Source: Schmidtea polychroa (taxonomy: Eukaryota). From it: DNA of 64,000 bases. The notes under the pieces were generated by a model that did no database searches, had not been told where the DNA came from, and was given only the letters and a program-made list of their open reading frames with translations. Position numbers and translations under genes: made by a program. The stretch covers positions 100,068,001-100,132,000 of the forward strand of contig CM097885.1 of NCBI GenBank assembly GCA_044892525.1. The letters are read 5' to 3'. Position 1 is the stretch's first letter. Every line of letters starts with the position of its first letter. Shown here in pieces: positions 17,601 through 64,000 of the stretch.

Positions 17601-20600
17601 ATTCAGTTACCCTAGTTATTTCTCTTACTAATCATTATATTGAGGTCCGTAAATTAAAATAAATTTAAATGAAATTTAGGTTAATAATTTAAAGAGGAAG
17701 TAAGTGAAGAAAAAAGACAAATAAAAGCGGGATCATGCACAGAATCGATAGTAAAGGAAAGTGTGATGGAAGCAGTATTAGAAAATGCCAAAAGCAATTA
17801 CGAAAGGCAAGAATCCGGAAATCCGAGAAAAATCAATAAATGGTAAAATCATCGAAATCGAATGGGGAAAACGGGACAGGTATGGAGTAGCTAATGGGCA
17901 ACAAGATGATGTTTAGGGATTTATCAGAAAATGGTTAGGAAGGGTCGAAAAGCATTCAAATGTATGAAAACAGAAAACGTTAATTAATTAATTAATTGGC
18001 TAATAGAAAACCCGAGCTAATGGGAAACATGAGCCAATGGAGAACCCGAGAGGTAAAGGAAACCCGAGCTGGGTAAACAAGAAGAAAAGCAAACAGAAGG
18101 AAGATTTGGGCCCATTAGCTTGACACAATGATTAATTGGAAAAGAGCAAGGAGAAGATAGTGCGTGTAGAAAGGCCGGAAGGGCCATTAATTATCTTGGT
18201 TCGTTGAACCATTATGGGTGACAGCCGAAGCAGATACGTGGAAGCAAATGTCAAGTGAAAGATTGACTCGGCAATAACCATTTGTCATCCCGATTTCGAG
18301 GAGTATATAAGGAAAGGGAAAATCAGAGAAAATCGGCATTTTGTCTCAGCTAGGGTTAGAAGAAATCGAGTTAAGAATAGGTAAAACGGATTAAGGAGAT
18401 TAGGGTAAAGAAGAAATAGAATAGGAATACGAAAAGGTGAAAAAGAAACAAATCAAACAGAAACAGAGGAAAACGTGGGTCAAGAGAGTCTAACGGAATA
18501 AAAGGTGAATATTATCTATTTGCAGAGCATCAACGCCGAGCGGAGAATCGGTCAAACGTAACTTTGATTATTAATTGTAAAGTGGTGAGAAAAGATTGTG
18601 AATTTGTTATTTCAATATACGTTGGGTCGTTCATTGTTTTGATTTAAAGGACACGAGGAGTCAGAGGGAACCGACTTAAATTAATTGAAAACCCAACAAC
18701 TACAATGTGTGCCGACCATATTGTTGATAACATTATGAAATGTTAAGATGATGATTGGGAATGTGTTAATTAGTAAAACTCAAAATTGATTATGTTTCAT
18801 TGTATAAATTTCATAAAAATATTAGTTTTAACAGTCCATAAAACCTTAAATTTTAAGGCTTAAAATAACGCTTTTGTTACCATTACATACCTTGGAAAAT
18901 TCCATTGAAAACCCTTTAAAATGATACATTCGCCTTATTACGATACTCGAAATAATTGTTATTTTCCCTTAAAATTTGTCCATTATTGATGTTTTCTCCA
19001 CATTTGATAAATTTTAACAAAATTACATGTATTTTCTTTAATATTTTCGAAAATTTCCTTAAATGTTGTCCTATACACATACACACACATTGGCACTTTT
19101 TTGTATTCGTTAGACTTATTTTTTACCCCAATACTTGATTGACATACTTTTAAAGTCGATTAATTAAATTATATAGAATGTATAATATATATGTATATTG
19201 TATGTGTTTAATTTAAACTATATAGTGGGTGTGTTTAATTGAACTACATTGTGTGTGTGTTTAATTGAACTACATTGTGTGTGTCTTTGACCTACTTTGA
19301 TCCAGCGAGCCTATAGGTTTAAAGTGTCTATAATACGATTATTGTGCGAGAGTTGTGGTGAGCCATTTATACATTACTCATTCTGTTGAGGAAAAATAAA
19401 TAGTAGTCACTGGAGTGTTCAACTCAATTGATGTTTATAACTTAAAATTTAGCCATTTCACAAATGTCACCCTATTGATTTCGGAGAAATCAATGTTGAA
19501 CATTTGTGAATTGTAACTAATTTAGTTCTTGTCATTTAATATTAGTGGAATATCATCCAACAAGCATTGTTAGGGGATGAATGTCAATTATTTAGAACCA
19601 TGGTGGATGTTAGACACGCAATGTAGAATATAAGCTTCCAGTCTTTCTTGGTTGACCCATGATCCTCGCATGCTACTCAATGTTAATCGCCTCGCAGTGT
19701 TGAGGCATGAATAATTTAAAAATGAATAAAATAATTGAACGTGTGAACAATTCTTACTCTTATCGGGGTTCGTCGAAGATTGGCTTGGCTCGATTTTATT
19801 GTATTATGAGATCCTGACATTTGAAAATTTTATGACTGAGAACATGTCAGCTATCACGTCTTATATACCAAGTGGATCAGTGATTGTGTTTTCTCTTCCC
19901 CTGTCCTCGTCCGGGTGTTATTATTGATTTGTGTGTTGTGTGCTGATATGCTTGTCAGGGCTTTTGCTCCCAGTCACAGCTGTTGCCATTATTTCTTTTC
20001 TACTTCAATAGCAGCTTGATCGATTTGGCCACTTATAATGTCACGACCTTGGTGACAACTGTGACGGAGTCGATTCAAATTGTTTTATAAAATTAACAGT
20101 TATTTATTTTTTTGTTTTGGTTAACAAGGCTAATCATTTAGAATCCTATGCATTTTATCAAGCCAAATTAGCTTTCAATTTTTCTTGGCAACTAGAAATT
20201 ATGCTATATTTGTTTTTAATAATTCTCATATGATTCTGTTTTCATTTAACATGATCTTTGTTGTGTGTGATTGTTTTGGAAGTTCCTTGTCCCAAATGCT
20301 TGGATTTTAAACCGTCCCTGCTGACTAAGCACGTTTGAAATGAGGTGGTACTGGACGCGATCGACTTCTAGTTTACAACTATGACAGTCGGATTTGTGGG
20401 TAGACATTGCTAATACTAGAAGCTTAATTCGCTCTATATACCACTTGACACACGAATAAAATGAACTCGATTAGTGTTGCGTGCTGGGTTTTGATTTTTC
20501 TACCGTTTACACAACAATGCTACCCTCATTTTTGAGAGTTCTAAAAAGGTTTTTTCCTGAATTGGTAAACATTGTTATTGGAAATTGTCCGCCATGATTT

Positions 20601-26600: not shown

Positions 26601-29600
26601 GATATTGTATGTGTTGTCTTTGTGCGCTATAGGTCGATTATATTATTAATAAAAATTGCTCGTCTCACCATTTCATTGGACTCGGATATTGTGAACTCTT
26701 AGTATTATGTTGTGACCTTGGGGCTTCGCACGAACGATAAGTAGGTCGTGGTCTCAGTCGATTTAATTATTCGTATTGACACCACATGTAGACAACGCGG
26801 ATGTTGTTCATTACTCCACACGTCACTAAGAAGTTCCTGAGAAACATGTTGGTAAAACTACTCTGTATACACGGTTCAGTACAACCATCACTCCTGGTTA
26901 TATATCATTTTATTGGCTTGCATTTGTAGTTGGGTGTTGGCCCGAAAATTACGCTTTAGAGCGCAGCTGTATATAAATTAGAATTTAACTCTCGGCATCT
27001 TAGAAATATCTGAGATTTGTTAGACAAAACCGATATCTTTGCTTTAGAGTTTTACTTGCGGCATTTTTGGGGTATTAGAGTTTGCGAGTCTTTTATTATA
27101 AATTGTAGAATTCATATTTGTGTAGTTATAATTTAAATATTTTATTATCAAAAGCGAGTTATTTCATTTACTTATACGCGCTATATCTTGTGGCGTCAGA
27201 TAGTGCGAATTGTGTTTGATCGTTATCTAGCAGATCAACCTAACAGTTGTAGAAAGGAGGTTGTTAATGAAAAGCACATATTTACATTTACGCAATATAT
27301 TCAATTCATTTTAAATCAGAAAATAATAAAATTAAAAAATTAATTCATTATACTAACCTAATTGATTTGAATTAACCCATGATCCGACTCGAAGAATTGT
27401 ATTGTTATTCCGGATCCCTAAGAATGATCGCCAAACCCGAAGTCTTTGTGTCAAAATGACGGTCAGCATTTATAAAGTTAAATTTTTCATTTCTTTTAAT
27501 TATACTATGTTCGGGAAGTTCAACCACCCAAGTGACTTATCTAATTTATTACAAGAGTATTTGTGATTTTCTTAAATTTCTCATTCATTCATTACTTTAA
27601 AGAAAAATTTTCTCTTATTACAATTTTGGTGACAAAATGTTTTAATAATAAATAATTTTCATTTTCATTGAACGTAATAATTGCAGAGTCACAGTAGCTG
27701 ACATCTCATATTATTCCTTGAAACATTTCTATCGACGGTGACTAGTTTGATATATTTTTTAAAGCTATGAAGTTCGAGACTATTTGATATTTTAAAGTTT
27801 TATTCAGATCATTGACCATTCAACTGCCAATGATGAAATGGGTTTTGTCGTTGAGAATTATCCTATGTGTGATTATCTCAAAAAACTATTAATTCGATTG
27901 AAACAGTTCAAAGACAAAGAAACAATGAATTCAGTTTTAGAAAACTTCAGTGTTTTTCAAGTAAATAATTTTTGGAATTTATTTTTAGAGGATAAAGATC
28001 ATAAATTCTATATGATCAAAAGACACGGATGTCGTGTGGAAAGTAGAATTTTAAATAAAGTATTGATTTGATGAAATTTTTAAAATATACTCGATTAAAA
28101 ATTACAAAAAAAAATTACAACCATTTATTTATTATGTACGATAATATTTAATACAACATATTTCAAAACTTTGCAGTTTCTATAATCTAAAAAATCAAAA
28201 ACATTGCATTATAAGAAGCACACAAATTTAATACACCAAACACCACTGAGAACCATTTCCTATAATATAACAAAAAAATCAATAATCTTACATTATAGAA
28301 ACATACATACTTACTTTAAAAAAAAAAAAAAAAATCAAATTTTATTTTATTAAATTTCTGGGGCCTCCTGGCCAAGAAGGGGAGATCGATTCTCACCCTT
28401 ATGTAATCTGAAGCTTTTATTTGAATAAATAATGGATGCTGGAGTGTAATACTCCTACATCAAACGTTCTGTAAGAGTTCTGTCAGGTTCGGTATTAGTT
28501 GTTGATGTTAGCAATTGTTAGGAGAGGCTTGTTAAGGCTTCTATCAGGTTCAGTATTGTTAAGGCTTCTGGCAGGTTCAGTAGGAGAGGCTTGTTAAAGC
28601 TTCTGTCAGGTTCAGTAGGAGAGGCTTGTTAAGGCTTCTGTCAGGTTCAGTAGGAGATGCTTGTTAAGGCTTCTGTCAGGTTCAGTAGGAAAGGCTTGTT
28701 AAGGCTTCTGTCAGGTTCAGTAGGAGAGGCTTGTTAAGGCTTCTGTCAGGTTCAGTAGGAGAGGCTTCTATGTGGTTAGGAGCACTAGCCCTAAGCTATC
28801 TGGGGTGATTTTTCGTCTGCGGGACTCTAAAGAAATGTAATAAGTGAGAGTAGGAAGACTCCATTTGTGATTTTTATCACGCTGAAATAGTGCTACTCTA
28901 TTATAATATATATTAGAAGGATGGTGTAGACGCAGTAATACAGATATAGGTGAATGCTTATATTAAATATATGAACGACTAAAAGTTTACTATCAGTTAG
29001 GCGGAGTCCCTACAAGGACTCCTACATTGACCCACTGATAGTAATTATACACATAGGAGATATTTTCCCCTCTATTATTCTCTCAAGGCCAGGTGTGTTG
29101 GAGGGTAGTGCTATACAAATGCTGTGACCCCCTAGGGCGTCTTGGTTGGTCCAGGCGGGTTTCGATTCCCATACTCTATTGGATGTATCATATAGGCTTG
29201 TTCAGATTGGATTGGAGTCTGTTCTTGTTAGGCTAGGCTAGAGTAAAGTCCGTCATTCGTCTTAGAGTGTGTTTTCTGTGTAATCGTCATCATTTTTTTG
29301 GCGGATTTTTAGGCTAGGCTTGATTGTCGTCGATCACTCATTAGAAATTGTGCATCAGTGCTCTCATCATCTTTATTAAGAAGGTCCTGAAAATACTTGT
29401 ATGGAGCTGGAAGACTCCGGTAGTGCGATGATATACATAGACNNNNNNNNNNNNNNNNNNNNNNNNNNNNNNNNNNNNNNNNNNNNNNNNNNNNNNNNNN
29501 NNNNNNNNNNNNNNNNNNNNNNNNNNNNNNNNNNNNNNNNNNNNNNNNNNNNNNNNNNNNNNNNNNNNNNNNNNNNNNNNNNNNNNNNNNNNNNNNNNNN

Positions 29601-35600: not shown

Positions 35601-38600
35601 AGAGCTAAGGCTGGTATTCTTATTAAGGTTTAAGATTTGGGCATACTTCATAGTTGGGACACGGTTGGGTGTACGTTTCTATGGGTCAATAGTTGGTCTA
35701 GTACTAATATTCTCTGGGAGTCGGCCTCGGGCCGACGAGCTGCGTAGCGGCATCCTTTCGTCCTCCAAAGGAGGACGAAAAATTTTTTTGCTTTCATAAT
35801 TTCTGGAATAATTTTGGTCTTTTTTAAACAAATCTTTTTTAATTAAATTATCGCCATTTTTAAATTTATTTAATTTGGTATTTATATTAATATTATTTAA
35901 GTTACTTTTTTCATTTAAAAAATATGATTTTATGTTTACGGATTTATTTTTAAGGTTTTTCTTTACTGGGTTTTTATAATTATTATTCTTAATTTTATTT
36001 TGATTAAAAATTTTATCTTTATTAAATTTCACGTGTTTATTTCTATTATAATTTAAATAATTATGTTTATCAAATAGTTCGTTTTCATAAAATGGGGATT
36101 TATTTCTGCTTTTATTTCTATTATCATATACATTTAAATAGTTAATTCTTTTATTGGTATTATTTTCATTAAATAAAGAGTTATAATTTTCATTAAAATT
36201 ATCTTTACTATATATTACATTTTCATTAGTTCTTTTATTATTATGAATTTCATTTAAGTAATCATTATTATAATGCATTATATTTTCATTAATTCTATTA
36301 TTAGTATGAGATTCACTTAAATAATTATTTCTATTATACATTACATTACTATTGAAATTAAAGTTAGAATTGTAAAGATAATTCTGATCATTAGTTACCT
36401 TCTTTTCCCATGTGTCCTTTATTCGAAATAAGGTGTTTATGAATTTATTGTGTTCATTTTGGTTGATAGGCATGCCTCTGCATTGGGGCATAACCAAGCA
36501 GTAGGCGTAATTGAATGCTTTCAGACTGGCCTGTTGAATCTTGTGTCCAATTCGGTTCCAGTATTCTAGTAGTGTATCGTCAGTTAGATATATCCTTCCT
36601 GAAAGATAGTTAACGAGTTGATTAAAAATAGTGAACTCATGGATTTCAGCCCAGTGCTGTATGAATGTTATATCTGAGGAATAAAATTTTTTTGCTTTCA
36701 TAATTTCTGGAATAAAAAAAAATTACAACCATTTATTTATTATGTACGATAATATTTAATACAACATATTTCAAAACTTTGCAGTTTCTATAATCTAAAA
36801 AATCAAAAACATTGCATTATAAGAAGCACACAAATTTAATACACCAAACACCACTGAGAACCATTTCCTATAATATAACAAAAAAATCAATAATCTTACA
36901 TTATAGAAACATACATACTTACTTTGATTTCACGTTGATGTTCTCATTTATAGCTCAATGAGATACATCTTATATTATAGAAATCTGAAAAGTGGAAGTA
37001 AAATTAAAAAATGCACACAAGCACAACACATAATAAAAAACACATACAAACTTTTGATTCGTAAAATTGTAACGATGATAATAATTCTATTTTAGACAAT
37101 TTTTAGAAAAAAAAGATCGTTGAAAATTTTTTAAATTATATTTTTAATGAAAATATCAAGAGCAGATGAATTTGGTTCAAAATCTTTTTACTCCAGATTT
37201 GATTTCCTTTAAGAATCCCCTCATATTGAGCTCAGAAAAAAAATTACAAAAATTAAAAAAATTATTCTAATCCGCGATTTTTCCCAAAATGTTTTAAAAA
37301 AATACATTGATTGATTTATTTATTTAATTAATTATAATTAAAAATATATCGGACTCACAATTTTTCGAAATAATTCCAAAATACTTTAATAAAAGACATA
37401 AAATTCCTAAAAAAGCCTGAAAATTAATTAAAAATAATTTATAATTATATTGTTGATTAAAAGTAATATTTAAGAACTTGAATAATGACCTCATATCCAT
37501 ATGGATCAAAATTCAAGTCTTAAAATTTACTTTAAATTTAATATCTTACCTGAAAACCATTTCTAAAATGGCTAAAATAAATTTCATGATGAGTAATTCA
37601 TACGTAAAAAAATTATTGACAACTTTGAAAATTCATCAGTAGTAAATTGGTGAGTGAGCAATTGCTCTACCACCACTATAGAGAATGTATCTCAGTGGTG
37701 TTGGTAATTTTACACCTGTTTGCAGGATATAATAACCTCTGTAATATAAAAAAAATAAATACTCTAACAATATGAAAACACAAACTTACCTGTGTGTTGA
37801 ATGTTAATGTTTCATGAATGACAACATAGAATTCGAGAAAGGAATAGAAAAAAACTTTGTATACACTTCTTTGAGCTTCTCCAAGATGGTGGTACTGTAA
37901 ACTCTTATCGATACACAGATTTCATTTAAAATGGGATGACGTCACTTAACATTGATGTTGTGCGAAGACACTTGATTTTTCGTATGAATGATAAAGCTAC
38001 TCCGCAAGAAGTTATTGCCACTAAATGTTGTGTCAGCCATTTTATTCCACTGGTGTGAATTTGGATGACCGGTGCATTTTCAAGAAAGTTGAATTCTTTG
38101 GAAGAAGCAAATATTTTGAAAATATCAATGAAACAGTGTCTTCTAGAGTTTAAAGCTGAGTTTTCCCTAGGGAAATTAACAAAGGAACTTCAAAAACCTG
38201 GAAAGCATTGTGAAGAATTTATTAAACAAAATGAAAGCTATACATAAACATTGTTTGCATTTGTTGTTTATGATAAATATGTTCGGTTTTATAAATGGAA
38301 ATTTTTTGGGACACCCTGTAATAATAATTAGATAATAGGGTTTTTGATATCCACATAAATAATAAATATGTTTATGATGTATTTGGAAGTCGATTTGTGG
38401 ATGTATGCAAGTTGGGCTCTAGTGGAGTAGGCACTGCCAAGGTGGTGCTAAAGTTTATTTGATTTTAAAAACAAAGTCCCGGAGAAAAATTCGCTACATT
38501 TTTTGTATCTCTACGTTGATAATCAAGCACGAGATGAAGTCTCCAAATTTGTAAAAAAAAATTATAATTTATATTTACAATTACAATTTTATGCAAATGA

Positions 38601-47415: not shown

Positions 47416-48205
47416 ATTCTATTTCTTCTTTTCCCTACTTTCCCTAATTCGTTTACCAACTTTTCCTACGCTCTGATTCTTCGAACCCTAGCTGAGGCAA
47501 AATGCCGATTTTCTCTGATTTTCCCTTTGCTTATATACTCCTCGAAATCAGGATGACAAATGGTTATTGCCGAGCCAATCTTTCGTTTGACATTTGCTCC
47601 TACGTATTTGCTTCGGCTGTCACCCATAATGGTCCAACGAATCCAGATAATTAATGGCCCTACCGGTCTTCTTACGCGCGCTATCTTCTCCTTACTCTTT
47701 TCCCATTAATCATTGTGTCAAGCTAATGGGCCCAAATCTTCCTTCTGTTTGCTTTTCTTCTTGTTTACCCAGCTCGGGTTTCCTTTATCTCTCGGGTTCT
47801 CCATTGGCTCGGGTTTCCCATTAGCTCGGGTTTTCCATTAGCCAATTAATTAATTAATTAACGTTTTCTGTTTTCATACATTTGAATGTTTTTCGACCCT
47901 TCCTAACCATTTTCTGATAAATCCCTAATCATCATCTTGTTGACCATTAGCTAATCTATACCTGTCCCGTTTTTCCCATTCGATTTCGATGATTTTTCCA
48001 TTTATTGATTTTTCTCGGATTTCCGGATTCTTGCCTTTCGTAATTGCTTTTGGCATTTTCTAATACTGTTTCCATCACACTTTCCTTTACTATTGATTCT
48101 GTGCGCGATCCCGCTTTTATTTGTCTTTTTTCTTCGCTTACTTTCTATTTGAATTATTATTCTAAATTTCATTTAAATTTTAATTTTAATTTACGGACCT
48201 CAACA
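47416..48205 (-). repeat. 3' LTR of the large Gypsy, missing its last ~280 bp
   Basis: Starts TGTTGAGGTCC right after the PPT; matches solo LTR 17638..~18421, then diverges abruptly. Confidence 0.9.
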
Positions 48206-48220
48206 TATCTCCCCCCTTAA
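48206..48220 (-). other. Polypurine tract
   Basis: TTAAGGGGGGAGATA immediately 5' of the LTR TG. Confidence 0.9.
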
Positions 48221-51898: not shown

Positions 51899-53064
51899 TT
51901 ATAGTCTTGTTTCATAATATGAATATGATGGTGGTTGAACGATAGTTAGTTGTCTCTCTTTTACACATATCAAGATGGTGATGGTTATGAATGTTATTGA
52001 TAAGATGAGAAAATCTGTTATTAAAATGTAAATGAGATATTCACAATAGTTGACTGTCAAATCCGAATTTGTCATCATTAGTTTATTTGAGTTAGGTTTT
52101 GTCGTCTCTTGGGTTGGTAATTGGAAAGGTGATGTGGTTGTATATGATTTTCGTTTCGATTCATTGATTGTCTTGACTTCCACGAAAACTGTTTGCCATC
52201 TGCCTGGTTCGGTTATCCATCGCTGATATTTAACTGTTAATTCCCATGCCGTCTCTAAATCAGAAGTGTAAAGTGTAAAAAAATGATTACCGGCATCTAA
52301 TATAGTCAGTGTTTTTTGTTTGTAGATATTAACAACTCTTTCATCATTTCCTGATTTTCTATATATCGTTACCGGTCCATTTCCAACACTCAGGGTTATA
52401 CGATTTGACTCGTCTCTGAGATAGATAGACTGGGTCTAACTCTTAAATCGTGACCATTGGTTCCTCACTACCGTTCCATTTTCGAGGCATATGTTCTCGT
52501 AGTAGTTTGCATTAATTGAATAATTTTGATTCATTTTCAGTTTCTCAAAGCGGACAAATGATTTTCGCGAGTTAAGGGTGTCGACATTTAACCCTTGAAA
52601 TGTGATTCGCACTTTCACCAAGTCCACTGGCTTCCAATATATATATTGATTCCGTTTATCTCTGGCTCTATTTCGATCAAGTTTCGCATCTCTTTTGTGT
52701 GGACTTCTATCGGAATTTGCGTGTACCACTTTGACATGTTCTGTCTCAACAGCCATTGGTATTTGAAATTTGGCTTTAACTTTCGTACCGCAAAAATATC
52801 TTTATCATAATTCAGTTCTACCACTGGTGCCTTATTGTCTAGTAAATTAATAATTTCTATTTGGTCTGCGATCTCGCATTTACAGCTCCATACTATATTT
52901 GTTAGAGTGGAATATATATGTATTTTCTCCATTCCTCGGATTTTGTTTACCGCATATGGTAAGTCGATCTTTTTGCCGCTCGCGACTGTTACTAACATCA
53001 GCGTTATTGCTACATATAATATCTTATTGATGTAGCTGACTGGTGTTGGATTTTTCGTGCATTT
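51899..53064 (-). pseudogene. Type I membrane protein: signal peptide, FN3-like repeats, S/T stalk, TM, PPxY + PDZ tail (one frameshift at ~52645, one TAG at 52436..52438)
   Basis: KILYVAITLMLVTVASG; NIVW...RKLKPNFKYQWLLRQN; MRNL...INIY/WKP...EKLKMNQNYSINA; YLIYILITDFLILSITFITITILICV; QPPSYSYYETRL*. Confidence 0.7.
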
Positions 53065-54024
53065 CTATTTCAATTTTGTTTGACCCGTTACTTTATTCTG
53101 CTTGGATCTTAAGGGGTATCTAGATTCATCTTCCTCTAGCACTAGTTTACATCGATTTGCATGCACAATCATCGGGTTAGCCTTTTTACTCCTGAATGAT
53201 AATAACTTCAAATTGGTTTCGGTGGTGTCGCACACTTTATAGGATCCTTTAAATGGTCTTTGCAATTTAGGCGATAAACCTTTGAGAGGTTCCGGTCTGT
53301 TAAGATATACTAGATCTCCAATCTTTATGCCATGCGCATGTGCTTTTTTATCGTAGGTTTCTTTATATTTCTCCTGGTTGTGCTTTATTGTCAAACCGGC
53401 TTTAGTCCATACTGACTGCATTCTTTCTTGCATCATTGCTTTATAATCGGGTATCTCCATATATTGTGAAATTGGTGGTTGGAATTTGAGATCAATCGGC
53501 ATATTATTTTTCCTTAAATACATCAAATAAAAAGGGGTCTCTCCTGTACTTTGATTTACTGCATTTCTGTAGGCAAATAGACACGGCTTTATGAAGTCGT
53601 CCCAATCTTTCTGTTTTCGGTTCACATATGATGAGATCATATTTATCAGTGTCCCATTAAATCGTTCCACTAATCCATCCGTTTGTGGATGATATGGTGA
53701 CGTATTCAATTTCCAAATTCCAAATAGGTCTGTGATTGATTTGAACATTTCGCTTTGAAAGTTCTTTCCTTGATCAGTTAACAATTTCTTTGGAGTACCA
53801 TAGCGAAATATTATGTTTTCCACAAATATTCTAGCAATCGTGTCGGCTTTTTGGTTTGGAATAGCGTATGCTTCTGGCCATTTGGTAAAGTAGTCACAAA
53901 AAACAACAATGTATTTGTTTCCTTTTGTTGTTTCCGGTAATGGTCCCAGAATATCCATTGCCGTCATCTCCATCGGTGCTGCAGGTACTGGCATCGGTTT
54001 TAATGGTACTTTAATCTTTTTTTT
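53065..54024 (-). CDS. Gypsy integrase core and GPY/F region
   Basis: AMDILGPLP, LLTDQGKNF, DGLVERFNGTL (D,D-35-E), KLQRPFKGSYKV. Confidence 0.95.
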   Translation of the reverse strand, partial: KKKIKVPLKPMPVPAAPMEMTAMDILGPLPETTKGNKYIVVFCDYFTKWPEAYAIPNQKADTIARIFVENIIFRYGTPKKLLTDQGKNFQSEMFKSITDLFGIWKLNTSPYHPQTDGLVERFNGTLINMISSYVNRKQKDWDDFIKPCLFAYRNAVNQSTGETPFYLMYLRKNNMPIDLKFQPPISQYMEIPDYKAMMQERMQSVWTKAGLTIKHNQEKYKETYDKKAHAHGIKIGDLVYLNRPEPLKGLSPKLQRPFKGSYKVCDTTETNLKLLSFRSKKANPMIVHANRCKLVLEEDESRYPLRSKQNKVTGQTKLK

Positions 54025-55595
54025 TTAACTTTTACACCAATTTTTCACGTCTTGTTCCATTGTTGGCCAAAAGTATTTCAATTTTAATCTTGATAGCGTC
54101 TTGCGCGTTGACAAATGACCTCCCAACGCTCCATCATGATACTGCATCAGTAATGCGTCTCTGTGCTTGGCTGGTATAATAATTAATGCTTCCCCATTTT
54201 TCCAACATTTAAGTATTCCATTATGAATTACATATTTGCTGTTTGCATCTGTGAGTCGTTTCCAGTCTTGTTCTTTTCTTATTTTGACCGCTTGTTCCAT
54301 AAATTGTTTTAATTCACTATCGTTTTCCTGATCATTTTGAAGTTCAGACATATCATTAACTGCTTTGATTGCAGCGAATATAGTGCCTTCCAAATTTTCA
54401 GGTGTCCCTTCACTATCATTTTCTGGGATTCTTGACATTGCATCTGCATTCGCGTTAGCTTTACCTGTCAGATATTTAATCTCAAAGTCGTATTCTTGGA
54501 GGGCAATCGACCATCGTATTAACTTACTGGCTGAATGTCTGTGTTTCATTATGATCTGTATAAACAGTAAATTTTCTGCCCAATAAATATTGTCTAAAAG
54601 TAGTAATTCCATACACTAACGCTAACGTTTCCTTTTCAATCGTTGAGTAGTTTTTCTCGTGAGGCCTCAGTGATCGGCTTGCGTATGCTATTACGTGGTC
54701 CTTTTCACCTTCAAATTTTTGTCCCAACACCGCACCCAATGCAACGTTGCTTGCATCCGTCATCAAGATAAATTGTTTTGTAAAATCTGGACATCTTAAT
54801 ATAGGAGTTGTCACTAATTTCTCTTTTAATGTATTGAAAGCGTTTTGTTGCATTTGTCCCCAAATAAATTTATTGTTTTTCTTTAGTAACGTATTCAATG
54901 GTTGTGCGATATGAGAGAAATCTTTTATAAATTTCCTGTAATAGCTCGCCAAACCAAAAAATTGTCTAACCTCATCGGCATCTTTTGGTACTGGGTACTC
55001 TTCCACTTTTTTGATGTTATCTGGGTTAGTTTGTAACTCTCGCCGTGATATTATATGTCCTACATAAATCACTTCTGCTTTGCCCCATTCACATTTCGAT
55101 GGTTTGATTTTTAATTTTGCACTTTTGAGCCGTTTAAATACAGTTTCTACATCTTTCAGGTGTTCTTCAAAATCATTTGAAAATATTATTATATCGTCGA
55201 TATATACCAATGCATGTCGAATACCTCGTAGCACATAATTCATTCCTCGTTGGAATGTAGCTGGGGCTCCTGTTAATCCAAATGGTAACACATTGAACTC
55301 ATACAGTCCTTTGCCATCCGAGAACGCCGTCTTTCCTCTATCTTCCTCTTTTACTCTAAATTGATTGTACCCTTTGTTTAAATCAATAACAGTGAAATAT
55401 CGTGCCTCTCCCATTTGATTGAACATTTCTTGGGGTACCGGAATTGGATAAGTGTCTTTCCTCGTAACTTGATTTAGCTTCCAATAATCTACGCAAAATC
55501 GTAAGTCTCCATCTTTTTTCTTAACTATCACTATTGATGAGGAGAATGGTGACGCACTATCTCGAATTATTCCAAATTCCTTCATTGCTGTAATC
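54025..55595 (-). pseudogene. Gypsy RT, RNase H and integrase zinc-finger region (small deletions at ~54545 and ~54025)
   Basis: LRFCVDY, VIDLNKGYNQ, PFGLTGAPATFQR, VYIDDIIIF, LMTDAS...GAVLGQ, YSTIEKETLA, YTDH, KLIRWSIALQEY, YHDGALGGH. Confidence 0.95.
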
Positions 55596-58114
55596 CAATG
55601 GTTCCCAACCCGTGGCCCGCCGGGCAACAAAAAAATGCCCTCTCCTCAACAAAGAAAACTAAGAAAAAATTCACATTCACACCTTCTTTGGGAAAGGTTT
55701 GTCTTGAACTTCGTTTAAAACCATGATAAAACCATGATAAAACCAGATGCCAATTTAATAATAAAAGAACTGTGTATCGATTAATTTTGCTTGGTTTTCA
55801 TCAATAATCTGATTTTATTTCAATCTTCTGATTTTTTTTATAAATTCTTTTAATTATCTAATTTGGTTAAAAAACGAGCTCGGAATTTAAAATCATGGAT
55901 AAAAGAAAGTTTGAACAAAATAAAAACTTAGCATGTCGTGAATTTAATGACGAGTGGAAAGATAGGTATATGTTTGCTCTTTGTCGTAACGGAAAGCCGG
56001 TCTGCTTGGTTTGTGGATTTAGCGTTTCAGTTGTAAAGAAATATAATATGGAAAGACATTTCAACAGTAGCCATGCAGATTTGGTCGATAAATATCCAAT
56101 GGCCTCTGATTTACGAAGGGAATTTATCGCCAAGAAGGAGAAAGGAATGAATGTCCAACAATCCTTATTTACTGCTATACTACAGCAAAACAAAAGTATT
56201 GTAATTGCATCGTATGAAGTGGCACTTCTTTTGGCAAAGAAGAAGAAACCCTTTACTGATGGAGAAGAGATTGTGAAGCCAGTTCTTGAAATAGCCGCCA
56301 GAATGCTAGGAGAAAAAAACATTGAAGCCAAGTTTAAAGATATTCCACTATCGAACAATACAATGAAAAGACGGGTTGAGGAACTTTCTAATAACGTTAG
56401 TGAGCAAATTGCATTTCACGCATCAAACTGCAAGTTTTTCTCACTTGCAATGGACGAGTCAACTGACATTAGCGATACCGCACAGGTAACAATTTTTATT
56501 CGCGCGGTGAGTAATACTTTCGAGGTTATCGAAGAGCTGCTTGGACTTGAGTCCATACAAGGGACAACCAAAGGCACAGATTTGTTTGAGGTTTTAAAAT
56601 CATGCGCAGAAAAAAATAAATTGGATTGGAAAAGGTTGGATAGCATTTGCACAGATGGTGCATCAGCTCTAACAGGCAGGCATATAGGATGTTTGTCTTT
56701 GCTCGAAAAATTTCTTGCTCGTCCACTTTTAAATTATCACTGCATTATTCACCAGGAGTCGCTTTGTGGGAAATCCATGAATATGAAGCACGTTATGGAT
56801 GTAGTAGTGAAGTGTGTGAACAAAATCCGTGCAAAATCATTGCATAGGCGAGAATTTAGACAGTTTATTTCAGAATTAGATGCTGAATATGGTGAACTTC
56901 TTCTGCACTGTGAGGTCAGATGGTTGTCAAAAGGTAAAGTTCTGTCGCGATTCTGGGATTTAAAAGGAAGTATTTTGGAATTTTTGGCGGAAATTAATGA
57001 GTTGCCTATAGAACGTGAATATCTTTCAAATAATGAATGGCTGAATGATTTAGCATTCTTGGTGGACATTACAGGGCATCTCAACAATCTAAATTTGAAG
57101 TTGCAAGCAAGTAACAATCTGTTTGCAAATCTGTGTAACTGTATTGCTTCTTTCAAAATGAAATTACAATTATTTGCCAATCAGTTATCCAAAAAAAATT
57201 GGACAATTTTCAACACATGAAAGAAAGGATGACAGGTAATGACTTTGATGAAGACAAATATAGGTGTATGGTTGTCGAACTTTTGACAGCTTTTCAGTCA
57301 CGATTCAGTGAATTTGCAGATCAGTCTGAAAATATGGCTCTTTTTACCAATCCTTTCAACTTTCCAGACAAAAGGATCAACTGCCTAGATGAGAATTTGC
57401 AACTTGAAATTATAGATCTGAAGTGTAACTCAGTTTTGAAAAGTCGATTCGCGAGCTTCCGGTTATTCCAACTGCAGATGATATGATATCATTTTGGAAC
57501 CTGCTCCCAGAGAGTGACTTTGAACATATGCGATTTTTTGCACAACGTTATGTTTGTCGTTTTGGTAGCACATACAGATGCGAGCAGTCATTTTCTGCAA
57601 TGAAATTGATTAAAAGCAAGAATCGTTCACGCCTTACTGATTCGAACTTGAATGGACTTATGATTCTGGCAACAACTAAACTTCAACCTGACATTGAAAA
57701 ACTGGCTTCTAGTATTCAGCCACAAAATTCACATTAAATCCAAATGCCTGTGAATATTTTTATTGAAATTATAAATATATTTTAACTATGATAATGATTT
57801 ATTTCGAAAATCACTATCTCTGGACTTTATTGGTGTTTTATTTAATTCACAATTTCTTTATAAAAGTTAAAAACCAATATTTATCTCTGTAAATTAATTT
57901 ACTAAACTAAAGTTACTAATCAGTAATTTGCCAATTGTAAAATATTATTGTAAATTATGTCATATAAAAAAAGTATCTTGGTTTTTTTCATCTAGGGTAT
58001 TAACTCACAATAAGGTTTCTTTTTCGCCGTTTTTTGTTGTTTTAAAAATTTTGGCCCTTCGTGTCCTCCACCTAAACAAAGTGGCCCTAGGCCAAAATAG
58101 GTTGGGAACCACTG
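55596..58114 (+). mobile_element. hAT DNA transposon (SPIN/Buster/GTF2IRD2-like), 2519 bp, inserted in the Gypsy RT
   Basis: TIR CA(A/G)TGGTTCCCAACC; 8-bp TSD CTGTAATC at 55588..55595 and 58115..58122. Confidence 0.97.
55895..57737 (+). pseudogene. hAT transposase with two frameshifts (~57210, ~57485)
   Basis: BED-like CLVC...RHFNSSH; FSLAMDESTD, TDGA, HCIIHQESLC, CEVRWLS, GSTYRCEQSFS. Confidence 0.93.
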
Positions 58115-61100
58115 CTGTAATCTGTCTATCACTTTCGTCTTGATGAACGTAGGGGGTTCTGTATGGCTTTATTTTTATTGGAGTTTCGTCTAATAACTGT
58201 ATTTCATGCTCAATTACATTGGTTAAACCTAAATCATATTCGTGTTTGGCAAAGATATCCCGGTATTTTCTCAACAGTTTTGTGAATTCCTTTTTCTGCA
58301 TCTCATTTAAATCATTGCTTACCACTTCAGGCTCCTTATACACCTTGACGTTTCTTGGTATTTTACAATTTGTTTCAATAGACATTTTTGATAATTTTCC
58401 CAATTTTGTTTTTGGGTGTAGCTGAACCGGTTTCTTACTGCTATTCGTTATATGGACTGGTACTATCTGATTTTCCACTTGGACAATTTCGTCACATATC
58501 GGTAAATCATATTTTTCGACTAGCGTTTGATTTGGTTCGAATATAAAATCACCATTATCCACACTCATGGTATTTGCACAATATACCATCTCCGATTGTG
58601 GTGGTATTGTCAATGTCTGATTCACAAACACTTCACCTGCCCTGTGAATTATTTCTCCTGTTTCTCCTGCTATCAAATTACCTGTCTTTAAATCAAGTGA
58701 GACTCCGTCCAACTGCTCTAATATATCCATGCCGATCAGACATCGTACTGGACTTCCCTTCATTATGAGCGCATCGTGCGCTATTATTCGATCTCCAATA
58801 TGGAATATGACGTTAAGTTGTCCAATTATGTTTAATTCATTTTTTGATAATGACCTCACTATTTCGTCGGTAGGCTTTATTCGCATTTTTCCCTTCGCGT
58901 TTAGTACATTTTCCGATATTATTGTGTGACTAGATCCCGAATCAACCAAAGCTTCCACTTTATGTTTGTTCATTTGTATAAATATTCGGGGTTGCTTTCC
59001 TCTTTTTGTTAATGTCATCAATGAGTAGTTGCATGGTAAGTCTAACATATTTTTTCTCTCGATCTCTGCGCTAGAAGGCTCGATTCTCTCTCCTACCATT
59101 CCTTCACATTGTAATGCGATATTTTCCACTGGTTTCATCTCTCGTAATCGATCAACTGGATACACTGGTGCTGGTTGCATAAATGATTTTGGTATACACA
59201 ATTTTGTAAACGTGTCTACGCTACTCGCATTCAACAGTGGCTCTTTTAAGATTTGATAGGTTCTTAACGCTTCTTTATTCATTCCACTTAGTTCTTGACT
59301 GTCAACATATAACGGTGCACTATCACCCTCGTTGTCATTGTCATTATTCTCGTCCCTTGAAGGGGTTGTACTAGCGTAGCTCACCTTTTTCTTCTTTAAT
59401 ATTCGAGCCTTGAGTATCTCCAACTCCTGATATTGATGATGAGTAATGAAGAATCTAGCCAATAATGGTACGCAACCAATTACTAGTTTCCACGACCAAC
59501 CTGTGATCGCGTATAATCTGTGTGTTGACAGGACCTGCGATATTATCACTTTGATTACAACACATATTACATAAATTCCAATCAATCCGGCACACGCTTG
59601 TCCAATGAACATAAACTTTCCCCAGATCTTTTTCATTGTATTATACGTCGCTTTCTTGTAATGATCTGGAGTTAACAAATACTCGTAATTCACCTTCCCA
59701 CTTCCGCTTGGGAGAATTGTATCTACCATTTCCATTATTACTCTTTCTTTCTTTGATGGAAATAACAAGTTTCTGCGAGCTTCCCCAATGTCTTCGCTCG
59801 AGTAAATTCCACTTTGCGACAATTTTTCTAACGACGTAAAATTTACCAGATATTGTAATTCTGTCAATTCTAAGTTTTCCGGTGTCTTTACTTCTCGATG
59901 ATCTGGTAATGCAATCCAAGATTCTGGTGTTAGTCTGTATAGTGGTGCCAACAATCTATTGCACTGTAATACTTTCGGTTTCACGTCCTCTTCCAGTAAG
60001 ATTCGTGTTACAGGCTCCATAAATCGCAACTTTCCATTTAAATTCACTGGTAACTCGTTGGTGCATTGGTCATACTTTGTCAGTTTAACTGGTACCGCTT
60101 TACATTTATAGCTATATAGTACTTCACCGAAAATTTTGGCAAACACCCCATTTTCTGTAATTAACATTGGTGCTACCAAATTAGGATTGGTTATAGCCAT
60201 TGCCATCCGATTTCGGAGTATTTCTTTGTTGAGATTGCAATCATTTATAATAACTTCTCGGTACACATTTTCAACAGTATTTTGACCAAAGTGAAATAAA
60301 TAATCTATTTTGTTATTAAAGTAATTTGTCAACTTGATATCTCCGGCATGTATGTTTGTTTGGGCCTCTGTAATCATTTTCTGAGATACATATATACCTT
60401 TATAATTTGTCTCATAGACATTTTGTCCACACTTTGTTTAAGTTTCTTTTCTCAGGAATCGCATCCCATCTTCCTCCGAGGTTGACATTAACACTGTTGG
60501 AGTATCTTTCATCCGTAGAGGTGTGATTCTTGTTGTTGTACTCGTTGCTGGATCCATTCTTATTTTCTCAGGCTTTTCCCTGATCTGTTCTCCCGTTATT
60601 TCTTTAAAACTCATTGACTTCAATTGCACTAAATTGCACTTTTTGGTATCGACATCGTACACCAAGATTGATTCTCCTGTCTGACAGCTAGATTGTTTTA
60701 TGTTGCAGAATGGATGTGTTTGTAGTTTACCAGTATCATCATCAAATGATCCATCAAATTCTCTTAATTCTGACATGTACTCTTCCACAACCACGGCTTT
60801 GTCAATTATAGCATCGTCTACTTTGTATGGCTCTCCTTCGCAATCACCATTCGACTTTATTATCCCTCGCACGGTTACAGTCTCGCGGATTTTGTGGTTA
60901 AGCTTTGCTTGTAGTTTAATATCTGCATTGATTTTCAACTGTCCTGTTTGAAAGGCTGCCAAACAATTCTCTGGAATTATTTCTATCGGTCTAGGTATCG
61001 ATTGCATTTTCACCATCGATGAGTGGCTCCATTTTCCACAATAAAATACAAAAGTAGTTCGTTTCACTGTACACTCTCTCACCTTTGCTCGTCGAAACCC

Positions 61101-61286
61101 CGATTCTTGATATACATGATATTTTACTGAATTTGTCACTTTAAATGTTACTGTGTATGCATCTGAACACTCTGCTACGTTTACCAACGAATATACTCTT
61201 CCCATTTCGGTTTGGGAGCAGTCGTATGCTACCAATGAATTCGTCGTGTTTATTATTCCCAATAACATAATAATAGAAATCATCAA
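58115..61286 (-). pseudogene. Env-like chuvirus/gB-type glycoprotein fused in frame to aspartic protease and the start of RT (one TAA at 60438..60440)
   Basis: Signal peptide then LVAYDC...YQ...C...YCG..SH; GEVLYSYKC..V.V...CTNELPV...FMEPVTRIL...CN.LLAPLY; GIYS.ED; TM ~59615..59538; ALVDSGSSHT and CLIGMDIL. Confidence 0.85.
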
Positions 61287-61349
61287 TCATGGAAATGCGA
61301 GTTTTCCCTTTTTCTTCACTGTCTCTGTTTTTGGGCTCTCATCCTTTTG

Positions 61350-61643
61350 TATCAACTTTTCCCATCCGCCATTGTTTGCGATCCACTTAGTCAAATATTT
61401 ATTCGTCATTTCAGTAGCTTTCTTTATCAATGATTTTTAATTGTCACTTTCCAGACAACCATAAATACCAATCTCCAATATTATATAGGCTAATACTGTC
61501 AATATTACATCTCGATCCAACTCGGTTCGTGTTAGGTCCTCAATTACTGCTTCCTCACAAAATTCCTTTTCTTCATAATTTCTTTTAATTTCTTTTAATC
61601 TCCTCTTTAATTCCGTTGCCAATCTTTTTACAACTCTTTTCTC
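61350..61643 (-). pseudogene. Bcl-2-like domain (one TAA at 61437..61439), same frame as the glycoprotein
   Basis: EKRVVKRLATELKRRLKEIKRNYEE...DRDVILTVLAYIILEI...*KSLIKKATEMTNKYLTKWIANNGGWEKLI: BH2 W-I-x3-GGW motif and Bcl-2 helix spacing. Confidence 0.65.
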
Positions 61644-62110
61644 CCCTCCGAAGTATCATCTTCTGTTTCAGTTTCATCTAACAAGTACAATTCCGTAACT
61701 AAACTTTTTAACATTCGCTCAGTCTTGCTTGATTCATCTAAACGCTCAGTTTTGCTTGATTCATCAAAACTCAACGATTCAATTTCCGCATCATTCTGTT
61801 TTTTCCGACATATCGCAATGTCATTTTTCGTTTCAACGAAGTTCTCTTCACTTTTCATCTCATCTGTGCTCGGTAGTACCCTATTATCAGTGCTCATTTC
61901 CTCGATATCCTTTGTAACTTCATTTTCCGATCCCATTTCCTCATTTTCCATTGTTTCTAATCTCTGCAATTCATTAATTTCTTGATCAATTTCTCCTGGG
62001 TCATCTACAACTTCAGTTTTAATCTCTACATTATCATTATCCGTTTCCTCATACGGAGGCCAAAACGGTACTATTACTGCATCTTTTTCCATTTCATCAC
62101 TTTGTTTTGT

Positions 62111-62771
62111 TGCGTACACATTATTAATACAATTTGGGTTACATCCGTAGTTTAACAAATATTCGTCATCATCCAATTCTCGTCCTTTGAACGTCAACAC
62201 GATAATTCCTTCATTACCTAATATCTCCGCTGCTTTTTGTCGTATTTTCTTTGCTGTTAATATTCAATCCTTTGATCCGCAATATTTAACGCTATTATCA
62301 AAGACTTCGCACTATCGTCTGCCGCCTCATAATCATGTCCTAGTTTTCGGATTACCTCTTTTAACTTTGCCTGATAACTTGTCGGTTTATTCGTATGCAT
62401 TCAAACAACCCTTCTTTCATGTCTCGATCCATTTCGATGCTCATTATGAAGTCGATACTCGCATTAATTTTTTCTCTATTCCCTGCATACAGGGTATCTT
62501 GTAAATCTGCTAGAATCTTTTCCCAATTTTGTCTGTCTGAATTCAAAGTATTAACAGCATTAACCACATTTACTTTATTTTTCCAGCCTGGTATCAGACC
62601 GCAATCTACCAAGTACTCCTCGTCTTCCAGACATCGATTCTCAAATTTTAGTTGCACTTGCCATCCACTGTATTGACGCAGTATTCGCTCCTTAAGCTCC
62701 CTGATTTGTCCGTATGCATTTACACGGAATTGGCACTTCACATTATCAAGCCCCGTCATTTCCACTATGAT
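62111..62771 (-). pseudogene. Two ubiquitin-like domains (62771..62562 and 62307..62111)
   Basis: QIRELKERIL...VQLKFENRCLEDEEYLVDCGL and AKKIRQKAAEILG...VLTFKGRELDDDEYLLNYG vs ubiquitin IENVKAKI...[20 protein letters not shown]. Confidence 0.65.
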
Positions 62772-63269
62772 ATCAGCTAAATCCCTTGTTGACCGTAAAG
62801 CCTTTTTTTGCATTTGCTTAAGTATCTCATCGTCTCTGTTTCCTTTGAATAACTTTGCACATAAATTTATGGCTCTCTTTAGTTCGCTTTGGGTTAGTGA
62901 CATCACACTGAGTTCTGCGATCCATCGTTTCAACTGGGAGTTGTCAGTTTCCATTTTCTCAAGCCATTTTTCAACTCGGGCTAACAGTGCAGTCGGATTC
63001 TCATCTGATGCGATCTTTCGCACTTTCGTGGCAGGTTTTCCCTCACCTTCTGACACGGTTCCAATTATCATATGAGATTCAGTTTCCTCATCTGATTCAA
63101 ATTTAGCCACTAATTTTTTCAGCTTCTGTCGCATTTCTCGAAATTCCTTTTCCATTTTGTCTTGAAATTCCTCTCTCTGAGCATATGTCATATTACTAGT
63201 GTTTGGCATATCTTCTTGGAATCTGATCGATTTCTTTAATATAGGTCTGCTGAATCTCTCGGAGTTCCT

Positions 63270-63685
63270 TGGGCATGATCGCGCCATGTGGCCGTATCCC
63301 TTGCACGAATGACATTGGATCTGTCCATTTGTATTCACTTTGTCCCTTTGTGGTGAAGGTGACGTTGACGATGATCTTGATCTAGTGAAACAGTTTCTGC
63401 TAATATGCCCTTTCTTTCCACATCGATAGCATTCGACATCACTGCTGATCCGTTTGTTTTCTGTGAATCTCTTGTTAGGGCTGGGATTTTTCTCATATTT
63501 GAACCAACATTGATTTGAATAGTGTTTGATTTGAAATCTGCAAATTCAACAGGGTCTCTTCCATATTGATTGACGGGTAATTTCTGGAAACTTGCGAAAT
63601 CAATCATCTCTCTATTGAGAGGCATAACAGCATTATCATTTGCCATTTTGACTTGTTTCTGACTTCTGAGGTTGTATCGGTTCAC
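63270..63685 (-). pseudogene. Gag remnant: short N-terminus joined to zinc knuckles, capsid domain apparently missing
   Basis: CYRCGKKGHISRNC and CHSCKGYGHMARSC (CCHC x2) plus a degenerate C*IC...HYSNQC knuckle, only ~150 nt after the first ATG. Confidence 0.8.
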
Positions 63686-63900
63686 TTTGAGCTAAACTTC
63701 AAACGTTAAACAATAATTTAAAATTACTTTTCAACTTCTTTTAAATCTCCCAATAATAGCCTTTAATAATCTCGTTAGCACTATTTTCACAAATTTTTCA
63801 CTACTTTCAATGATTCTCAGCCGACTTTCGATCACGTCGGTACTATTTTTTTCAATAATTATTTTTCCACTAACTTTCAGTAATTTTCCACCGACTTGCA

Positions 63901-63918
63901 ATCACGTCGGGCTAACCA
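63901..63918 (-). other. Primer-binding site, tRNA-Trp
   Basis: TGGTTAGCCCGACGTGAT vs the recalled vertebrate tRNA-Trp PBS TGGTGACCCCGACGTGAT (15/18); 7 nt from the LTR end. Confidence 0.85.
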
Positions 63919-63925
63919 AAATATA

Positions 63926-64000
63926 TGTTGGGTTTTGGATTACTTTAAGTCGGCTCTCTCTGACTCCTAGTGTTCTTTAAATCAAAACAATGAACGACCC
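63926..64000 (-). repeat. 3' end of the 5' LTR of the large Gypsy
   Basis: Ends ...AAAACCCAACA; ~91% identical to the end of solo LTR 17638..18698. Confidence 0.9.

Follow-up and report, generated by a model that had tools for sequence, protein, structure and literature searches.

Giant Gypsy elements of the Burro/GYPSM1 kind were described in planarians by Arkhipova and Yushenova (2019; PMC6431247), who cite Grohme 2018 and Jurka 2007. According to the sections of that paper available to us, planarian Burro elements carry env in frame between gag and pol. Chary and Hayashi (eLife 2026; PMC13524379) reported GAG-ENV-POL elements with a gB-type env in Nematoda, Bryozoa and Platyhelminthes, and the accessible part of their paper lists 215 copies of one of them, Smed_errantivirus_2. 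The same part states that herpesvirus gB requires partner glycoproteins, and that there is so far no explanation of how these elements enter. As far as the available excerpt goes, a chuvirus-derived glycoprotein sits in the LTR retroelement Anakin (Dezordi 2020; PMC7642597) as it does here, whereas Anakin is a BEL/Pao element and ours is Gypsy. Burro transcripts go up on smedwi-2 knock-down, as an extract of PMC8532177 reports. Literature searches for particles and for other in-frame env cases, which drew on partial texts, gave nothing relevant beyond these four papers.

Here, we analyze a 64,000-nucleotide stretch of Schmidtea polychroa DNA (the window), in which an earlier note had seen a fusion glycoprotein joined in frame to the protease of a Gypsy element. 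The in-frame env is already published for planarians and for this family (in the available parts of PMC6431247 and PMC13524379), and it is not new.

The element and its single reading frame

The env finding lies inside an LTR retroelement on the minus strand, which runs from past the window end to about 47416. The LTR-to-LTR span is about 17.5 kb, counting in a 2.5-kb insertion. It belongs to the published Burro/Smed_errantivirus kind of planarian Gypsy elements; the family is present in many copies, and the one in the window is damaged. LTRs, a primer-binding site, a polypurine tract and the order PR-RT-RH-IN are all found (Pfam and sequence), confirming the Gypsy host named earlier. The polyprotein of about 3,300 aa occupies one frame and contains Gag, ubiquitin-like, Bcl-2-like, Env, PR, RT, RH and IN parts and a second membrane protein. 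The features are as follows.

63926..64000, minus: inner end of the 5' LTR (about 1,060 bp, extending past the window; TG...CA ends)
63901..63918, minus: primer-binding site just inside the LTR, from sequence; we take it to be tRNA-Trp-like
62766..63691, minus: gag with CCHC knuckles; about 670 nt near 63530, present in other copies, are missing
62588..62765, minus: ubiquitin-like domain (Pfam, under the cut-off; E 0.055 here and 3.6e-5 in one natural copy)
61350..61600, minus: Bcl-2-like domain with NGGW motif, directly upstream of the env signal
61236..61316, minus: internal signal sequence after a basic cluster; private stop at 61289
59625..61235, minus: ectodomain of a predicted class III glycoprotein (chuvirus/gB-type), with a private stop at 60440
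59541..59597, minus: transmembrane helix, likely the sole pass after the ectodomain (hydropathy)
59445..59507, minus: second, weaker hydrophobic segment (W, K, P, R), likely a helix on the cytosolic membrane face
58998..59444, minus: open linker from the Env tail to PR, kept open across copies
58704..58997, minus: retroviral-type aspartic protease (DSG; Pfam E 2e-8)
55596..58114, plus: hAT/SPIN-like DNA transposon (terminal inverted repeats, 8-bp target duplication) inserted secondarily into pol
53065..55595, minus: RT, RNase H and integrase; interrupted here by frameshift or stop
51899..53064, minus: post-integrase membrane protein, in three pieces here and in frame with IN in other copies
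47416..48206, minus: 3' LTR, preceded by the polypurine tract (791 bp compared with the 5' LTR, 2 mismatches)

Copies that retain the roughly 670 nt of gag match Retrotrans_gag in Pfam. The Bcl-2-like domain matches Pfam Bcl-2 at E 0.003, 6.4e-4 and 1.5e-5 in three families, all under the cut-off, and Atlas leads point the same way (0.89). Near 62250-62120, a possible second ubiquitin-like stretch is recognized by eye alone and has no ubiquitin match. The hAT-like insertion is missing in all 19 other copies fetched.

We notice that the LTR pair differs at only 2 of 791 nt, though the interior has many stops, indels and the insertion. The window copy may have been mobilized in trans when already defective, or its LTRs may have been homogenized. 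Elsewhere in the window, a further LTR of the same family lies at 17626-18698 (90% identical, opposite orientation). Two identical 212-nt direct repeats (28106-28317 and 36714-36925), 8.6 kb apart around a GC-skewed region, are possibly another LTR element.

Read with X at the stops, the window env runs through PR in one minus-strand frame. The internal signal after KKKGK, the Cys-patterned ectodomain and the two hydrophobic segments, all proposed before, are located in this frame. The ectodomain, put at about 520 aa in the earlier note, measures about 545 aa from signal end to TM. The stops at 61439 (in the Bcl-2-like domain, which also has small indels near 61590-61660), 61289 (a TGA inside the signal) and 60440 (in the ectodomain) each occur in 1 of 20 copies, namely the window copy itself.

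An in-frame env-PR fusion predicts a junction without a conserved stop, and this is what the copies contain. From TM to the PR active site, 20 of 20 copies have no stop or indel. The linker of about 150 aa noted before is 148 aa without a stop, counted from the KKKK cluster to DSGSS. A protein search with the stretch from segment 2 to PR as the query gave 1,249 candidates; of the best 150, 141 have an open junction, a count biased towards open copies because the ranking follows likeness to an open query. The other 9 have stops, of more than one codon type. With 793 candidates, of which 40 were scored, the family is abundant.

The frame does not open with Env: in other copies, it enters from gag. 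Within 10-kb stretches, a single frame of 2,699-2,947 codons leads from gag into IN in 3 of 19 copies, and full frames of about 3,330 codons recur among copies. The single-frame layout is also found in two more families in the genome, whose env is at about 70% amino acid identity. The KKKK basic cluster after segment 2 is not retained in the second family. One slippery-type heptamer is present, at 59055.

The glycoprotein and a proposed path of the polyprotein through the membrane

On the basis of profile, sequence and structure comparisons, Env is a predicted fusogen of class III, a Monjiviricetes/Jingchuvirales G-type glycoprotein, which agrees with the chuvirus/gB-type assignment made at the outset. 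Both env pieces score above the Pfam cut-off for PF24664 Monjiviricetes_fusion (E 3.9e-27 and 2.3e-65). In an alignment of 114 sequences, 11 cysteines are at least 90% conserved. The AlphaFold model built on this alignment (pLDDT 88.7, pTM 0.64) shows long beta-strands and a 48-residue central helix. Searching a library of predicted viral structures by Foldseek ranked chu-like virus G proteins first (E 4e-39, 19-21% identity), and herpes gB (E 5e-14) and rhabdovirus and bornavirus G were found too. In a sequence search against PDB, all 31 matches at E<=1 were herpes gB and fell on the central helix; these are weak, the best having E 0.036. Four env homologues from a word-based search turned out to be chimeric fragments.

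Env is under purifying selection. Between families, pN is 0.18 and pS is saturated at about 0.75. The membrane region is better conserved than the ectodomain, with 80% identity in the TM region. The gag rows were misaligned and were left out of this analysis. A furin-type RFLR was considered as a kept cleavage site and rejected, as it is missing from the second family.

We consider it likely that the element makes a membrane-threaded single polyprotein, with Env lumenal and with PR and the enzymes cytosolic and tethered to the membrane until they are cut. Gag and the ubiquitin-like and Bcl-2-like domains would be made in the cytosol, and the internal signal after KKKGK would send Env to the ER lumen. 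Once signal peptidase had cut this signal, the Gag/Bcl-2-like part would be tail-anchored. A single TM would then stop transfer: segment 2 would stay on the cytosolic face, and PR-RT-RH-IN would be cytosolic and attached to the Env tail until PR cuts the enzymes free. After IN, the second signal would export the FN3-like domain of the last protein, and its TM would return the PDZ-type tail to the cytosol. In these four passes (in-out, out-in, in-out, out-in), Gag, Pol and the tail would be cytosolic and both ectodomains lumenal. The gathering of Env and Gag on one membrane would pair the PR monomers. Pol would be packaged without a frameshift and an enveloped particle would form, its infectivity being hypothetical. 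Gag, Env and Pol from one frame is an unusual arrangement; flaviviruses, to which we liken it, thread their polyprotein.

It is a different matter whether this fused frame is the source of working Pol. Pol could instead come from a splice that skips env or from internal initiation in the linker, in which case the fusion would not set the ratios. Other errantiviruses express env by splicing, the linker holds several Met codons, and the RNA coverage is shallow. In one single-cell RNA run (about 2% read), 5,074 reads lie across all 30 bins of a natural copy; they are mostly from a single strand, and poly-A-type ends fall in the LTR. Among the 5,074 reads no canonical splice joint was found, nor in the 3' part; at this low depth, rare spliced mRNAs could have been missed. 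A joint of 4 reads skipping 4,098 nt was rejected as a splice, its ends being non-canonical. These reads are weak evidence that the element is expressed unspliced. A separate env ORF is present in other errantiviruses (in the available sections of PMC6431247), which also speaks for Pol from another message. The linker, however, has been kept open in the three families as well as in distant relatives, and it would not need to be if the junction were bypassed. We regard this explanation as unlikely.

The earlier note held that the number of true passes decides whether PR is cytosolic. We addressed this through hydropathy and parity, together with a rough insertion score. Segment 1 (about 59597-59541) has a Kyte-Doolittle (KD) value of 2.64 and segment 2 (59507-59445) one of 1.39. 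Among fused proteins, segment 1 reaches KD>=1.6 in 8 of 8 and segment 2 in 1 of 8; among other homologues, the figures are 82 and 12 of 98 (8 of the 114 rows were skipped as too short, and the fused/other grouping is our own). Segment 1 alone is the likely membrane pass after the ectodomain. In the model, the TM lies within one long helix (522-577), which blurs its ends. The signal cleavage site, before LVAYDC, was assigned by eye, and the basic cluster KKKGK precedes the signal. With one Env pass, PR would therefore likely be cytosolic.

The opposite case, in which segment 2 is a second true pass, places PR and Pol in the lumen, so that cytosolic Pol arises only from failed insertion and mixed topology serves as ratio control. 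Segment 2 is well conserved, lies near the threshold (KD 1.1-1.7) and reaches KD 1.58-1.71 in two relatives. Its median KD, however, is 1.38, with 1-2 charged residues, and stand-alone viral-type G proteins share the weak segment (median 1.28). A second pass would also invert the post-integrase protein. By parity (signal, TM, signal, TM), its C-terminal ET-x-V/L is cytosolic only if segment 2 does not cross; otherwise, the PDZ-type tail would be lumenal. We regard a second pass as unlikely. Against the proposed threading, the Bcl-2-like domain holds a hydrophobic helix of its own (KD 2.25, but under 1.3 in one family) that could interact with the membrane at an early stage.

Relatives and age of the capture

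The earlier note proposed an independent env capture. Outside this genome, we scanned 16 long homologues. PR follows env in the same protein in 10 of them, 3 stop within env or shortly beyond it (one of these has just a protease motif), and 3 are without PR. The PR-fused relatives are 28-44% identical. As a side observation, in the distant env-pol polyproteins P0007, P0008, P0010, P0013 and P0018, env is followed by at least two aspartic protease motifs in tandem.

A quick tree of 60 rows places the window env in a clade of 15 (13 PR-fused proteins and 2 fragments; SH-aLRT 99), separate from the stand-alone glycoproteins; the rows are top hits, so the clustering is partly built in, and one out-of-frame row was ignored. 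The single homologue with DUF5641, a domain we take to be BEL/Pao-associated, carries it ahead of env and lies outside the fused clade. Judged from these sequences, the capture is separate from that of BEL/Pao; it also appears to be old and shared, because the window env sits in a PR-fused clade apart from stand-alone glycoproteins. It is not special to the window element. A recent and independent capture from a chuvirus by this element is very improbable: chu-like virus G proteins are the closest named folds, but they are just 19-21% identical against 28-44% for the PR-fused relatives, the fused envs form one clade in the quick tree, and an ancient acquisition is argued for in the accessible part of PMC13524379.

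The post-integrase protein, the Pol-less subfamily and known systems

In the window, the post-integrase protein consists of a second signal, a beta-rich FN3-like ectodomain, a TM and a short tail ending in ETRL. The C-terminal motif ET-x-L/V, presumably a class I PDZ-binding motif, is present in 3 of 3 families, and the protein is under purifying selection (dN/dS about 0.3). The FN3-like ectodomain is an Atlas lead (0.87); no FN3 match came out of profile searches of Pfam and PDB, and the model built from 4 sequences has a pLDDT of 43.7, at which the fold is unreliable. Our search for longer homologues found none. The profile of this protein has no significant match in the tails of the distant polyproteins (best domain E 0.07). 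With it, the tails of P0007 and P0011 have in common only the signal/TM layout and an FN3-like motif. This membrane protein is a candidate for filling the partner-glycoprotein gap in the entry of gB-type elements.

In a Pol-less subfamily, the sequence downstream of PR is fused to the second signal without loss of frame, with microhomology at the joint. The deletion, equivalent to window 58417-53044, is present in 6 of 19 fetched copies; its junction gave 27 matches, the full-length form 154. Another in-frame deletion of Pol, different from this one, was seen in one copy of the second family. A retrotransposed splice product was rejected as the origin, as the junction has microhomology instead. 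The position of env had been thought to force Env and Pol to be made 1:1. This is so for a single transcript, with Gag included; within a cell, the Pol-less subfamily could shift the Env:Pol ratio.

We tentatively speculate that these elements are enveloped retroviruses with two glycoproteins from one four-pass polyprotein. A gB-type fusogen would be joined by a post-IN FN3-like attachment or trigger protein, whose PDZ tail would steer budding to cell junctions. Pol-less derivatives, keeping both membrane proteins in frame, would give extra Gag and Env in trans and so correct the forced 1:1:1. In the literature available to us, we found no mention of the post-integrase membrane protein or of an in-frame Pol-less subfamily; the supplements to planarian element papers may hold more. 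The accessible part of PMC13524379 gave no treatment of topology, the post-integrase protein or the Pol-less subfamily, and its main text never uses the words "polyprotein", "fused", "Bcl" or "ubiquitin". What is added here is modest: copy-level proof of the open junction, a topology argument for a cytosolic PR, and two side features that we did not find described.

The nearest described element is Smed_errantivirus_2, which the available part of PMC13524379 gives as GAG-ENV-POL with an HSV/gB-type env of cysteine group C1a, in the same gene order as the window. Comparing its env (PMC13524379, supplementary file 3, row 206) with the window translation by eye revealed 246 of 251 matching residues. 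The paper, as far as available, describes three ORFs, whereas the window family has a single frame. The Burro/GYPSM1 polyprotein, in the sections of PMC6431247 we used, has env in frame between a BCL2-like domain and PR, and so does ours, with Bcl-2 and ubiquitin matches under the curated cut-offs. Burro is given there as longer than 30 kb, with an ORF of 4,873 aa and MATH, BIR and ankyrin domains; in contrast, the family here is compact, at about 3,300 aa. No Pfam match to MATH, BIR or ankyrin was found in the parts of the window family scanned, and Pfam gave no confirmation of a dUTPase-like domain in it. The window element is a compact relative of Burro1, and not Burro1 itself.
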